DNA from: Escherichia coli
GTDB taxonomy: Bacteria > Pseudomonadota > Gammaproteobacteria > Enterobacterales > Enterobacteriaceae
Reading direction: 5' to 3' (one strand)
DNA: 64,000 bases
NCBI RefSeq assembly: GCF_003334255.1
Contig: NZ_QOWU01000012.1
A program made the position numbers and the translations under genes. The notes beneath the pieces are model-generated. The model did not search any database. It saw nothing but the letters and a program-made list of their open reading frames with translations, and was not told where the DNA came from. This document shows, piece after piece, positions 3,861-64,000 of this stretch (its first letter is position 1; the number at the start of each line of letters is the position of its first letter).

Positions 3861-4268
3861 TTGTGCAAATATTGTTACCCCAGCAACAAACAGGCTCATA
3901 CAGCCCCTAACCCTTTCATGGCGATGGCTGGGACGGTTCAGACCTTGCCGAATATTCTCCAGCACCGTCTCCTCATTACAATCAATCTCGTTATTCCAGA
4001 AACGCAGCACGGTCCAGCCCTGCGACTCAAGCCAGCTAGTGCGCCTGGAATCATAGGCAACTGCTAAATCATGCTGCCCACCATCCAGCTCAACGACTAC
4101 ACGCGCCGAGCAGCAAGCAAAATCGAGAATGTAGCTCCCCACTGGATGTTGACGGCGAAATTTGAAATCACTAAAACGTCGGCTGCGAAGATATCGCCAG
4201 AGCTTTCGTTCCTGCAAAGTGAGATTGCGTCTTAAATCACGCGCATTTGATTTAATTTTATCTATCAC
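3822..4268 (-). CDS. ycjD: DUF559 (Vsr-like fold) protein YcjD. GTG start. The C-terminal tail reads into the boxC-like repeat.
   Basis: ORF MIDKIKSNARDLRRNLTLQERKLWRYLRSRRFSDF.... The ORF is 148 aa, against 117 aa annotated in K-12. The last ~30 codons are encoded by repeat sequence. Confidence 0.75.
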   Translation of the reverse strand: MIDKIKSNARDLRRNLTLQERKLWRYLRSRRFSDFKFRRQHPVGSYILDFACCSARVVVELDGGQHDLAVAYDSRRTSWLESQGWTVLRFWNNEIDCNEETVLENIRQGLNRPSHRHERVRGCMSLFVAGVTIFAQYGPLAPLGRGLG

Positions 4269-45736: not shown

Positions 45737-47350
45737 ATGAAGCACTCTGTTTCAGTCACGTGTTGTGCGCTGTTGGTCAGCAGCATTTCTCTTTCGTATG
45801 CTGCAGAAGTTCCGAGCGGCACAGTACTGGCAGAGAAGCAGGAGCTGGTGCGCCACATTAAAGATGAGCCTGCGTCGCTGGATCCCGCTAAAGCCGTGGG
45901 CCTGCCAGAGATTCAGGTCATTCGCGATCTGTTTGAAGGTCTGGTGAATCAGAACGAAAAAGGGGAGATTGTCCCCGGCGTTGCGACTCAGTGGAAAAGT
46001 AATGACAACCGTATCTGGACTTTTACCCTGCGCGATAACGCAAAATGGGCGGATGGCACACCGGTAACGGCGCAAGATTTTGTCTACAGCTGGCAACGTC
46101 TGGTGGACCCAAAAACATTGTCGCCATTTGCATGGTTTGCCGCGCTGGCGGGAATCAACAACGCACAGGCGATTATTGATGGTAAAGCTACGCCTGACCA
46201 GCTTGGCGTCACCGCAGTTGATGCCCATACTTTGAAAATTCAGCTTGATAAACCGTTGCCGTGGTTTGTGAATTTAACCGCTAACTTTGCCTTCTTCCCG
46301 GTGCAAAAAGCCAACGTAGAAAGCGGTAAAGAGTGGACGAAACCCGGAAATCTGATCGGCAATGGCGCTTATGTTCTTAAAGAGCGCGTAGTCAATGAAA
46401 AACTGGTCGTGGTACCGAATACCCATTATTGGGATAACGCCAAAACGGTACTGCAAAAAGTGACCTTCCTGCCAATTAATCAGGAATCCGCAGCCACTAA
46501 GCGTTACCTCGCGGGGGATATTGATATCACCGAATCCTTCCCGAAAAATATGTATCAGAAGCTGTTGAAGGATATTCCGGGGCAGGTTTATACGCCGCCG
46601 CAGCTCGGGACCTATTATTATGCGTTTAACACGCAAAAAGGGCCGACGGCAGATCAGCGCGTTCGTCTGGCATTAAGTATGACGATAGATCGCCGCCTGA
46701 TGACCGAAAAAGTATTAGGGACGGGCGAAAAGCCAGCGTGGCATTTTACACCAGATGTTACCGCGGGATTTACGCCGGAACCTTCGCCGTTTGAACAAAT
46801 GAGTCAGGAAGAACTGAATGCGCAGGCAAAAACTTTGTTGAGCGCAGCTGGTTATGGTCCGCAAAAACCGCTGAAGCTGACGCTTTTGTATAACACTTCA
46901 GAAAACCATCAAAAAATTGCGATTGCTGTAGCATCGATGTGGAAAAAGAACCTTGGCGTAGATGTTAAATTGCAAAATCAGGAATGGAAAACCTATATCG
47001 ATAGCCGTAACACCGGCAATTTTGATGTTATCCGCGCCTCGTGGGTGGGGGATTATAATGAACCCTCCACTTTCCTGACATTATTAACGTCAACGCATTC
47101 AGGAAATATTTCACGCTTTAACAATCCGGCATATGACAAAGTTCTGGCCCAGGCATCGACGGAAAATACCGTTAAAGCGCGTAATGCCGATTACAACGCG
47201 GCAGAAAAAATCCTCATGGAGCAAGCACCGATTGCACCAATTTATCAATATACCAATGGACGATTAATCAAGCCGTGGCTGAAAGGTTATCCCATTAATA
47301 ATCCTGAAGATGTGGCGTACAGTCGGACTATGTATATTGTGAAGCATTGA
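45737..47350 (+). CDS. mppA: Periplasmic murein tripeptide-binding protein MppA (SBP family 5)
   Basis: MKHSVSVTCCALLVSSISLSYAAEVPSG... (537 aa) from ATG 45737. Confidence 0.9.
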   Translation: MKHSVSVTCCALLVSSISLSYAAEVPSGTVLAEKQELVRHIKDEPASLDPAKAVGLPEIQVIRDLFEGLVNQNEKGEIVPGVATQWKSNDNRIWTFTLRDNAKWADGTPVTAQDFVYSWQRLVDPKTLSPFAWFAALAGINNAQAIIDGKATPDQLGVTAVDAHTLKIQLDKPLPWFVNLTANFAFFPVQKANVESGKEWTKPGNLIGNGAYVLKERVVNEKLVVVPNTHYWDNAKTVLQKVTFLPINQESAATKRYLAGDIDITESFPKNMYQKLLKDIPGQVYTPPQLGTYYYAFNTQKGPTADQRVRLALSMTIDRRLMTEKVLGTGEKPAWHFTPDVTAGFTPEPSPFEQMSQEELNAQAKTLLSAAGYGPQKPLKLTLLYNTSENHQKIAIAVASMWKKNLGVDVKLQNQEWKTYIDSRNTGNFDVIRASWVGDYNEPSTFLTLLTSTHSGNISRFNNPAYDKVLAQASTENTVKARNADYNAAEKILMEQAPIAPIYQYTNGRLIKPWLKGYPINNPEDVAYSRTMYIVKH

Positions 47351-56960: not shown

Positions 56961-56967
56961 AACTGCA

Positions 56968-57062
56968 TAAAAAAATAGAGTCTGTCGACATCCGCCAGAC
57001 TCTATAGTACACACAGCAGTGCATCCGCGTCTTAAGTCCGGCATTGTCTCCTCTGCGCCGGT
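56968..57062 (-). ncRNA. mcaS: McaS (IsrA) small regulatory RNA, 95 nt
   Basis: Reverse complement reads ACCGGCGCAGAGGAGACAATGCCGGACTTAAGACGCGGATGCACTGCTGTGTGTACTATAGAGTCTGGCGGATGTCGACAGACTCTATTTTTTT. The terminator hairpin plus U-run is present. Location is the abgR-smrA spacer, as in K-12. Confidence 0.85.
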
Positions 57063-60439: not shown

Positions 60440-60561
60440 GCAGGTGAATGCAACGTCAAGCGATGGGCGTTGCGCTCCATATTGTCTTACTTCCTTTTTT
60501 GAATTACTGCATAGCACAATTGATTCGTACGACGCCGACTTTGATGAGTCGGCTTTTTTTT
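60440..60561 (+). ncRNA. fnrS: FnrS small regulatory RNA, 122 nt
   Basis: GCAGGTGAATGCAACGTCAAGCGATGGGCGTTGCGCTCCATATTGTCTTACTTCCTTTTTTGAATTACTGCATAGCACAATTGATTCGTACGACGCCGACTTTGATGAGTCGGCTTTTTTTT matches FnrS. The terminator gccgactttgatgagtcggc plus T8 is present. Confidence 0.88.
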
Positions 60562-62323: not shown

Positions 62324-63259
62324 TTATTTCACTTCAACCACATTCAGCCGTAACTCATCCAACTGATTTTCATCTTCTTCTGGCTGCCAGCCCGCCGGTT
62401 GTAGTGGGATCTCTTCGCGATCAAACGCCAGATCACCCCCGTTAACCACTTCAGAACCGTGGGTAATGCCTTTGAAATCGAACAGGTTGGTATCGCACAG
62501 ATGCGACGGCACCACATTCTGCATCGCGCTGAACATCGTCTCGATACGCCCTGGATAACGTTTATCCCAGTCACGCAACATGTCAGCAATCACCTGACGT
62601 TGCAGGTTAGGCTGTGAACCGCACAGGTTGCACGGAATAATCGGGAACGCTTTTGCATCGGCAAATCGCTGAATATCTTTCTCGCGGCAGTAGGCCAGCG
62701 GACGAATAACGATATGTTTGCCATCATCGCTCATCAGTTTCGGAGGCATACCTTTCATCTTGCCGCCGTAGAACATATTTAAGAACAACGTTTGCAGGAT
62801 ATCGTCACGATGGTGGCCCAACGCGATCTTCGTCGCCCCCAGTTCCGTTGCGGTACGATAAAGGATACCGCGACGAAGGCGAGAACACAGTGAGCAAGTG
62901 GTTTTGCCCTCTGGAATCTTCTCTTTCACGATACCGTAAGTGTTCTCTTCGACAATCTTGTACTCAACGCCCAGCTTTTCAAGATACTCGGGCAGAACGT
63001 GTTCCGGGAAGCCCGGTTGCTTTTGATCGAGGTTAACAGCTACCAGCGAAAAATTGATTGGCGCGCTTTGCTGCAAATTGCGCAGAATCTCCAGCATGGT
63101 ATAGCTGTCTTTACCCCCGGAGAGGCAAACCATGATGCGATCGCCTTCTTCAATCATATTGAAGTCAGCAATGGCTTCGCCCACGTTACGACGCAGACGT
63201 TTTTGTAATTTGTTCAGGTTGTATTGTTCTTTCTTTGTAACTTGTTGATTTTCTGGCAT
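62324..63259 (-). CDS. ttcA: tRNA 2-thiocytidine(32) synthetase TtcA
   Basis: [33 protein letters not shown]... (311 aa) from ATG 63259; the PP-loop SGGKDS motif is present. Confidence 0.9.
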
Positions 63260-63541
63260 TATATTTTTCTCAAGACCCTTCAGGGGCATATAAGAGGCAA
63301 ATTTTAGTAAAGTACTTACCCAATGTTAAGCGAAAAATATGTAGTTTCTCTTAGTTGAGCATCTTTAAATCGCTGCGTAAGTATCTTAACATTGTTGTTA
63401 ACGTCTATAGTTATTTCACTGATACATGAGTTTAAATTAAAATGTGTTAAAATATTTATTTGGTTTAAGATGATTTTTCTTTATTATGTAGCGGGATTTA
63501 TATCCCATTGTAAAGAAAAGTTGACATTTATTGGGGGTAAC

Positions 63542-63928
63542 GTGAGCGATATTCTGTCATGGATTGAGGTTGGTAAACTTTCAGCTGAAAGGGATGATAA
63601 TCTTGTACATTACTTCTTTGATAATGGGGTGCTTCAAAGCGTAATTAATACTCCATCATCTTTTTTAATTCTTGGAAGAAAAGGTGCTGGTAAAACAGCT
63701 CTTTTTCGTTATCTAACAAATAATCCCAGACAATATCTAAAAGAGAATGAAGTATTAGTATCTTTATCTTTTGAAGACTACAATTGGCGAGTTCATTCTC
63801 TGCTCAGTAATGAATATGCTGCTGAGTCATTAGCATATAAACAGTCTTGGAAATTTGTAATTTTAGTTGAAGTTATTAAGGCTTACTTAAAATATTTAGA
63901 AGAAAAAAGATTAACAATACCTAGGTAA
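63542..63928 (+). pseudogene. AT-rich foreign gene for a P-loop NTPase/kinase-like protein (Walker A LILGRKGAGKTALF), 5' portion only. The reading frame is cut by IS1, and the stop TAA is supplied by the IS1 end.
   Basis: Likely GTG start at 63542 after GGGGGT. The ORF-track ATG at 63392 gives 178 aa. GC content is ~30% versus ~52% for the flanking core. The frame runs into the IS1 terminal repeat GGTAATGACTCC. Confidence 0.6.
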
Positions 63929-64000
63929 TGACTCCAACTTATTGATAGTGTTTTATGTTCAGATAATGCCCGATGACTTTGTCATGCAGCTCCACCGATT
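63924..64000 (-). mobile_element. IS1 insertion sequence, terminal 77 bp (IRR end first; the rest is beyond the window)
   Basis: GGTAATGACTCCAACTTATTGATAGTGTTTTATGTTCAGATAATGCCCGATGACTTTGTCATGCAGCTCCACCGATT equals the IS1 right end (inverted repeat GGTAATGACTCCAACTTATTGAT). Confidence 0.85.

Follow-up and report, generated by a model that had tools for sequence, protein, structure and literature searches.

The DNA analyzed here is a stretch of 64,000 nucleotides (nt) from Escherichia coli (contig NZ_QOWU01000012.1 of assembly GCF_003334255.1), referred to below as the window. At its right-hand end lie the tRNA 2-thiocytidine synthetase gene ttcA, a short AT-rich region, the 5′ fragment of a gene for a P-loop ATPase of the Sll1717 family, and the first bases of an IS1 insertion sequence that breaks this gene (Table 1). 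With near certainty, a Rac-family lambdoid prophage that integrated in ttcA has left a 2.7-kb scar here, whose left edge forms the end of the window; the broken gene is best read as an inactivated single-gene ATPase, a candidate for phage exclusion. The guanine-plus-cytosine (GC) content falls from 0.49-0.54 across dbpA and ttcA to 0.27-0.36 from about position 63200 to the window end, and Rac occupies the same place in K-12, in agreement with an earlier, sequence-only reading of the window that had placed an AT-rich, horizontally acquired island where Rac attaches in ttcA.

The open reading frame (ORF) that starts at GTG 63542, with a translation beginning MSDILSWIEVGKLSAERDD, belongs to a genuine gene and did not arise by chance, because its 128-amino-acid (aa) product alone matches the NCBIfam model NF047389 with an E value of 4.9e-21 and 75.4 bits (cutoff, 75). 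The Walker A motif GRKGAGKT occupies residues 45-52 (nt 63674-63697) and is preceded by 44 residues, whereas the sequence-only reading had counted about 55. That reading had also placed the break after ~130-180 codons; in fact, 127 native codons precede it, and the 178-aa version of the ORF in the mechanical list begins at an upstream TTG that was judged spurious because all homologs begin at the GTG position. The diagnosis of a P-loop gene disrupted by IS1 was correct: IS1 sequence runs from 63924, where it begins ggtaatgactccaactt, and its end supplies the stop codon (TAA, 63926-63928). The hybrid codon 128, AGG, spans the junction with its two Gs taken from IS1, and the annotated truncated ATPase coding sequence (CDS) ends at 63928, using IS1 bases.

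The sequence past position 64000 was read in sibling genomes, not on the source contig. The 665 bases from 63260 to 63924 are present in 6 of 5,426 complete E. coli genomes, each time at 100% identity. In strains G1/2 (locus L001) and G6/7 (L063), the ATPase gene consists of two CDSs on either side of an IS1A, with the 3′ remainder directly past the element, whereas WP7-S17-ESBL-04 (L002) and two other strains carry a single uninterrupted 514-aa CDS annotated “P-loop ATPase, Sll1717 family” (L002 20283-21827; WP_197971544.1). Base-by-base comparison of the interrupted (L001) and uninterrupted (L002) alleles defines a complete element of 768 bp in the siblings, whose ends read GGTAATGACTCC and GGCAGCATCACC and which is flanked by a 9-bp target duplication, CAATACCTA; the second part of the ORF and the 8- to 9-bp duplication that had been anticipated beyond the IS1 are thus both found. 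RefSeq labels the sibling element [quoted passage not shown] and its length, terminal inverted repeats, frameshift, and duplication identify it as IS1, although only 77 bp are visible in the window. Because the insertion falls after codon 127, the Walker A motif is cut off from the remainder of the protein, and the gene is dead in the window lineage. RefSeq annotates both halves of the split gene as ordinary CDSs rather than as pseudogenes. The rest of the window, from rnb to ttcA, is collinear with the WP7-S17-ESBL-04 chromosome at ≥99.95% identity and contains no second IS1. In strains G1/2 and G6/7, mppA contains a further IS1 (L001 2650-3347; L063 1952-2649; near window position 46930) that is absent from the window. 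Because the window has the insertion in the ATPase gene without the one in mppA, it comes from a sibling lineage in which the former predates the latter.

Without the IS1, the island spans ~2.7 kb and reads, in order, attL in ttcA, the ATPase gene, the 3′ fragment of an intR homolog, the right end of Rac, attR/ttcC, and uspF. The attR copy stands at the start of what remains of the ancestral ttcA 5′ end, annotated ttcC in K-12, and the layout of attL and attR-ttcC is that described for Rac and rac-like prophages (PMC4632033). In K-12, Rac sits at the same site, ttcA being followed by intR after a 52-bp gap with no gene between attL and intR. Integration in the 5′ end of ttcA, the att repeats, the ttcC relic, and an IntR-type integrase beside attL, here only a fragment, assign the island to the Rac family. 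The sequence-only reading had seen the island as lying there instead of Rac, but the intR fragment, the right arm with ttcC, and the 26-bp att repeats (Table 1) make it a remnant of a Rac relative. The outcome that reading had named as fatal to its proposal, normal Rac beyond the IS1 or an ordinary prophage gene, was nearly realized: the region is a Rac scar, but the gene is not an ordinary packaging ATPase.

Table 1 Features of the window end and of the uninterrupted island in E. coli WP7-S17-ESBL-04 (L002)
Feature	Position	Strand	Remarks
ttcA (tRNA 2-thiocytidine synthetase)	62324..63259	-	ORF list; RefSeq annotation of identical DNA
attL core, 26 bp, TTGTTCAGGTTGTATTGTTCTTTCTT	63210..63235		Within ttcA; exact repeat is attR, L002 22634-22659
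Conserved prophage-end block	63260..63345 (L002 20001-20086)	-	Alignment of four ttcA-integrated elements
AT-rich leader of ATPase gene	63346..63541	+	Conserved only between E. coli and Salmonella
Sll1717-family ATPase gene, 5′ fragment	63542..63923	+	Codons 1-127 and base 1 of codon 128
IS1 target duplication, left copy, CAATACCTA	63915..63923		Right copy, L001 21433-21441
IS1A-type element, first 77 bp (IRR end)	63924..64000	- (transposase)	100% identity to L001 20665-21432
K-12 ttcA 5′ end	L002 19801-20003		99%
Unique segment containing ATPase gene	L002 20004-21941		No K-12 match
3′ part of K-12 intR	L002 21942-22360		85.6-88% nt identity; integrase pseudogene
Last ~120 bp of K-12 Rac, then ttcC and uspF	L002 22513-23400		95.5%

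The alleles show a succession of events. The ATPase gene rode as the one cargo gene (a “moron”) between attL and the 3′ end of int; a later deletion removed the prophage from inside int to ~120 bp from attR and spared only this gene; and IS1 then inserted after codon 127 in the window lineage. Three further loci support this history. A metagenomic contig of enterobacterial origin (L056) contains an intact Rac-type prophage that carries an 86%-identical ATPase gene in the same slot between attL and int, in the order ttcA, ATPase, int, xis, RecT, RecE/exonuclease VIII, repressor, YdaS, and YdaT, and another locus combines an 85%-identical ATPase gene with an intact int. The Salmonella enterica locus (L003) also runs from ttcA through the ATPase gene, whose protein is 96% identical, to the start of an int fragment at 89.7% nt identity. 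Within its ttcA-uspF gap (L003 10268-13690), the ATPase gene and int fragment are followed by a 1,140-aa DUF4765 protein, which has no PADLOC match, and a small SMR/EamA-like transporter; the right-hand content of this scar is unlike that in E. coli.

The prophage end also reaches into ttcA itself: the first ~50 nt of the gene in the window are prophage derived and give it an N terminus of the Rac-lysogen type. Beyond the ttcA start codon, ~85 nt are kept in four ttcA-integrated elements (E. coli, Salmonella, L053, and L056); the remainder of the ttcA-ATPase intergenic region is not conserved across the four, and the stretch that precedes the ATPase gene is shared by E. coli and Salmonella only. 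The conserved block holds a minus-strand sigma-70-like site, with a −35 element TTAACA (63324-63329), a 17-nt spacer, and a −10 element TAAAAT (63301-63306; L002 20070-20042 in the scan), which, as predicted from the sequence, is probably a ttcA promoter donated by the prophage end. This prediction rests on the conservation of the block because the number of such sites is not above shuffled expectation. By the same token, ttcA appears to be transcribed from a prophage-end promoter in lysogens. Promoter and terminator scans upstream of the ATPase gene gave counts not above shuffled expectation; the leader contains a weak promoter-like site at 63415-63443 (plus strand) and a GGGGG Shine-Dalgarno sequence directly before the GTG.

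The intact 514-aa allele scores 263.6 bits against NF047389, its residues 11-503 covering positions 2-454 of the 454-position model, and all 48 relatives examined, down to 22% identity, pass this model. Orthologs of ~511 aa that are 55-60% identical over the full length occur in at least 8 phyla, namely, Planctomycetes, Chlorobi, Bacteroidetes, Verrucomicrobia, Spirochaetes, Campylobacterota, Cyanobacteria, and Proteobacteria, and an exhaustive search retrieved 1,797 clusters at 50% identity (E < 1e-3). PHROG 13260, a family of unknown function, also matches the protein over its full length. The literature search found no paper that mentions Sll1717, PDC-M28, or the signature peptides of the family, and “ORC-CDC6-like” appeared only in a comparative paper on BREX. 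The family is therefore already catalogued by name (NF047389 and PHROG 13260) but functionally uncharacterized and, given also a sister family with validated anti-phage activity (see below), the suggestion of an undescribed system that the sequence-only reading had made for the locus is not supported.

In an AlphaFold2 model of the intact protein (predicted local distance difference test score [pLDDT], 82.8; predicted template modeling score [pTM], 0.83), a short stretch at the N terminus leads into a core (strands at 42-45, 70-76, 225-231, 267-274, and 294-296), which is followed by a helical lid (301-372) and a C-terminal winged helix. A helical insertion of ~150 residues (77-224), partly of low confidence, separates strand 2 from the Walker B strand and forms the most variable part of the protein. 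The predicted combination of a P-loop core with Walker A and B motifs, a helical lid, and a C-terminal winged helix is the layout of the ORC/Cdc6-type AAA+ ATPases, and the insertion is placed comparably to their initiator-specific motif, albeit much larger. The closest solved folds include Orc1/Cdc6, TnsC, MuB, and DnaA, and MalT is among the fold matches. At the level of sequence, the family profile matched nothing significantly among the sequences of solved structures, PF24389 (ORC-CDC6-like) reached 23.7-25 bits against a cutoff of 27, TIGR02928 (orc1/cdc6) reached 12.8 against 181, and matches to the Pfam families ATPase_2, nSTAND, and NPHP3_N were all subthreshold.

Two further assignments were not borne out. 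The KAP NTPases came into question because the insertion lies between Walker A and Walker B; no Pfam KAP match was found, and the insertion helices, judged by eye, are amphipathic with Lys and Glu rather than transmembrane. The PADLOC candidate system PDC-M28 gave only a partial, weak match to PDC-M28C (E value, 4e-9; residues 204-339), and no A or B genes are adjacent in E. coli.

Conservation across the 48 members traces the same architecture. The invariant residues are A15 and F25 in the N-terminal motif; G45, K47, G48, G50, and K51; D231 and D234 (FDxLDxGWD); R274 and D276 in FLRxDI; and P354 and R355 of RPRD at the start of the lid helix. D285, K288, R353 and D356 of RPRD, and H496 in hH(D/E)GL within the winged helix are nearly invariant (≥90%). 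The Walker B motif takes the form hhhhDxxD(E)xW, and R274 occupies the sensor-1 position. These features are reminiscent of the extended acidic Walker B motif, the sensor-1 arginine, and the MHD histidine of STAND NTPases. The Sll1717 family has invariant blocks of its own (SAERDD, NKLREDCG, and PSQGF...HDGL), within which R290 of NKLREDCG, considered as a possible trans-acting arginine finger, is invariant in the core clade and not across the superfamily.

Neither Pfam nor the model reveals a nuclease, protease, NADase, kinase, or membrane domain in the ATPase. No Pfam domain was found beyond the NTPase region, and the model is fully covered by the core, insertion, lid, and winged helix. Sensor repeats of the STAND type (TPR, LRR, or WD40) and effector fusions are likewise missing from the protein; fusions, to GT4-conflict and EAD7 domains, are confined to rare remote relatives.

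This architecture bears directly on the suggestion that the gene encodes a toxin or addiction module, either a zeta-toxin-like kinase, as the sequence-only reading had considered, or an abortive-infection toxin with an unseen antitoxin, which the IS1 insertion would have removed as harmful. A subthreshold Zeta_toxin match on the P-loop (E value, 0.065) and the inactivation of the gene in one lineage are what this proposal can draw on. However, the match to PF06414 covers residues 36-62 only, at 13.1 bits against a cutoff of 22.3, and the whole chain is predicted to fold as an AAA+ ATPase with a lid and winged helix, not as a kinase. Moreover, no small adjacent antitoxin-like gene is conserved, and intact copies persist stably in E. 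coli, Salmonella, and many phyla. The insertion itself may be neutral because IS1 prefers AT-rich DNA and a second IS1 resides in mppA of G1/2 and G6/7. A toxin is thus highly improbable.

Genomic neighborhoods were compared at 40 loci, 34 from one-genome-per-species contigs representing at least 8 phyla and 6 fetched by exact protein. All-against-all clustering of the neighboring ORFs yielded no recurrent family: the best non-self cluster was present at 4 of the 40 loci, ~5 kb away, and the sole tightly adjacent recurrent neighbor was LepA, a housekeeping protein, in three alphaproteobacteria. Past the IS1 in the siblings, there are no partner genes, only the rest of the ATPase gene, the integrase pseudogene, and uspF. 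The ATPase is a single-gene module, contrary to the expectation that its partners would lie beyond position 64000. In all 38 loci for which composition was compared, the ATPase gene is more AT-rich than its flanks (on average, by 17 GC points), and its GC content tracks that of the host (r = 0.81); together, AT-richness and host-tracking GC content are the signature of persistent mobile cargo.

These comparisons also inform the possibility that the ATPase serves its mobile element as a DNA-bound ATPase like ORC/Cdc6, TnsC, or MuB that would initiate replication, choose targets, partition the prophage or plasmid, or set the direction of recombination. Such a role would suit the fold neighbors, among them the origin-binding Orc1/Cdc6, DnaA, and two ATPases of transposition, TnsC and MuB; it would also suit a gene that adjoins int in Rac-type elements and, on plasmids, lies close to Rep and resolvase genes. 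Yet no integrase, transposase, or Rep family recurs beside the gene in the 40 loci, the lambdoid prophages with this gene possess their own replication modules elsewhere (O/P-type or DnaT/DnaB), and K-12 Rac works without it. In addition, the gene is intact in scars without any remaining prophage and is also found inserted alone among housekeeping genes, outside any element. A function in the service of the element is therefore unlikely.

The winged helix raises the different prospect of a MalT-like STAND regulator, in which a nucleotide switch would control the transcription of prophage or host genes through DNA binding by the winged helix, for example, in lysogeny maintenance or in the expression of ttcA. 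In the model, this domain resembles those of Fur and MarR-type regulators, as well as the winged helices of ORC and NB-ARC proteins; MalT itself is among the fold matches, and the gene diverges from ttcA across the conserved, promoter-bearing block. Against a regulator, neither target genes nor neighborhoods are conserved, the sequence upstream of the gene is not conserved past E. coli and Salmonella, the sister protein DS-41 alone protects K-12 from phage, and the domains fused to family members belong to conflict systems. A regulatory function is quite improbable. In general, the toxin, element-service, and regulatory alternatives are disfavored because no partner or target is conserved, the gene persists in scars and as a lone insertion, and the predicted fold is that of an AAA+ ATPase.

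The mobile contexts of the gene are diverse. In two lambdoid prophages, it lies at the end of the early left operon, convergent with int. A 55%-identical member in Vibrio cholerae (L006 1-9536) directly follows a filamentous prophage (Rep_trans and Zot) next to rtxA, in the region where CTX-type phages integrate. On a Klebsiella IncF plasmid, the ATPase gene adjoins pifC and the gene for PifA (943 bits in PADLOC), and on another plasmid, it adjoins a CBASS cyclase, a 4TM effector, and a RES protein. In Ketobacter, it resides in a variable region with HEPN_AbiU2, RelA/SpoT-like, and Macro genes and a transposase. Among 150 neighboring ORFs within 2.6 kb, Kiwa (KwaA and KwaB), SoFic, parts of type I and IIG restriction-modification systems, and mad3 were detected in a few loci, as raw counts and not as an enrichment.

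Some lineages show additional arrangements. At the Ketobacter locus (L015 8667-10439) and in a marine metagenome (L016 1946-3280), a ParA/CbiA-like ATPase and a RelA/SpoT-like protein are encoded on the same strand 3′ of the gene. The ParA/CbiA-like ATPase of Ketobacter matches PDC-M28B of PADLOC weakly, over the P-loop only, and in one variant of these loci, a group II intron reverse transcriptase is inserted just upstream. The three genes could be a lineage-specific arrangement related to PDC-M28. Separately, a distant relative, a 587-aa “ATP-binding protein” with ~26% identity over the C-terminal half, is common on small plasmids of Klebsiella, Enterobacter, and Citrobacter (~120 records); on one Enterobacter plasmid (L061 4746-6509), recombinase genes flank it, and Tn4401 and qnrS1 are nearby.

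The experimental reference point for the family is DS-41 (“AAA2”; WP_033812887.1; 502 aa), a single gene whose anti-phage activity in E. coli was validated in the DefensePredictor study (PMC13092281). DS-41 reduced plating of several BASEL phages by ~2-3.6 log, and the same study gives Avs1B as a remote homolog. The intact ATPase matches the NCBIfam model DS41_1 (NF053860) over residues 13-466 with an E value of 5.4e-16 and 58.6 bits, short of the equivalog cutoff of 370, and so do 45 of the 48 Sll1717 relatives. An hhalign comparison with the available 399 residues of DS-41 aligned 319 columns at 24% identity. By sequence comparison, the Sll1717 family is a distant, colinear sister of DS-41 and not a member of that family.

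We infer, with a probability of roughly 0.6, that the intact protein is a self-contained phage-exclusion (anti-phage) ATPase that temperate phages, plasmids, and other mobile elements carry for the protection of the host. Counted toward this function are the homology to DS-41, the GT4-conflict and EAD7 fusions, the plasmid neighbors PifA and CBASS, the Kiwa, SoFic, and restriction-modification neighbors, the AT-richness, and the lack of a conserved partner. The defensive role that the sequence-only reading had entertained is thus plausible. Several observations weigh on the other side. The link to DS-41 exists at the level of profiles, pairwise BLASTP being confined to the P-loop and one 81-column stretch; PADLOC 2023 returned only the weak, partial PDC-M28C match; and tblastn against 50,697 sequenced phage genomes gave no match to the ATPase. 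Most neighbors are housekeeping genes or parts of Mu- and P2-like prophages, and many copies lie outside defense islands. Finally, 55-60% identity across phyla is unusually high for an immune sensor, and the output step of the mechanism outlined below is a guess because no effector domain was found.

The protein probably works as a minimal ORC/Cdc6-STAND nucleotide switch composed of a conserved N-terminal strap, a P-loop core, the insertion, the lid, and the winged helix. At rest, it would be a nucleotide-locked monomer; the helical insertion is the candidate infection sensor, and a phage cue would free the nucleotide lock and permit ATP-dependent oligomerization. For the output, we would guess that the winged helix directly engages DNA or a conserved host or phage machine, a proposal made because there is no nuclease, protease, NADase, or membrane effector domain. 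A more specific version, in which the family is an autonomous immune ATPase without an effector and with a mechanism of its own, the insertion sensing infection and the winged helix clamping DNA or a conserved replication or packaging machine upon ATP-driven oligomerization, is tentative and rather doubtful. If true, it would explain the high identity across phyla alongside the constant status of the gene as AT-rich mobile cargo.

Elsewhere in the window, Rfam identified the small RNAs FnrS (60440-60557, plus strand) and McaS (56967-57062, minus strand) at their expected core-genome positions and no further RNA families. In or just past ycjD, near the end of the gene, positions 3934-3972 differ from the WP7-S17-ESBL-04 chromosome in the overlap of the aligned segments (39 nt in the query and 69 nt in the subject), which is probably a difference in repeat copy number. 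In strain G1/2, ynaI is split into two pseudogene pieces.

For the window genome, the locus is of little importance, as the gene is broken and its surroundings are a decayed prophage scar. It nevertheless provides a clean example of a prophage reduced to one host-useful cargo gene that was then lost to an IS element. The family is very widespread and comprises an unusually conserved single-gene ATPase found on Rac-type prophages, on IncF plasmids beside PifA or CBASS, and on other mobile DNA, and its sole experimental anchor is the distant sister DS-41. Should the intact allele exclude phages, it would constitute a second branch of the DS-41 class and a compact, 514-aa model of an effectorless STAND/ORC-like switch.

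Compared with known systems, the protein is most readily set beside DS-41. Both are single proteins of ~500 aa encoded in E. coli accessory DNA, colinear from the N terminus through the lid and without a recognizable effector domain, and they share a Walker A motif G(R/Q)(K/R)GAGK(T/S), a Walker B motif of the hhhhDxhDE type, and a lid motif (S/R)PR(E/D)hI; the differences are a score far below the equivalog level and the invariant blocks peculiar to the Sll1717 family. Identity to the archaeal ATPase_2 proteins SSO1545 (2fna) and PAB2304 (2qen) and to Orc1/Cdc6 (2qby and 1fnn) is only 10-14%, and the ~150-residue insertion sets the Sll1717 protein apart. Unlike the genes for Orc1/Cdc6 initiators, its gene is mobile and sporadic rather than core, and nothing ties the protein to replication origins. 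The immune STAND NTPases (Avs/AVAST, NB-ARC/NLR, and CED-4/Apaf-1) and MalT differ in that the Sll1717 protein has neither C-terminal sensor repeats nor an N-terminal effector, for which reason it is essentially the switch module alone. Among the ORC/Cdc6-clade ATPases of conflict systems (PMC10853773, PMC12839542), BrxC/PglY of BREX is a protein of ~1,200 aa that functions only within a six-gene, methylation-based system, whereas the Sll1717 protein, at 514 aa, has no partners. Finally, the exclusion cargo of Rac and other temperate phages (SieB in K-12 Rac and morons between att and int) offers the same picture, in the same ttcA-integrated Rac family, of a nonessential accessory gene at a prophage end that is kept after decay, except that the slot between attL and intR, a mere gap in K-12 Rac, is filled in a minority Rac variant represented by 6 of the 5,426 complete E. 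coli genomes.

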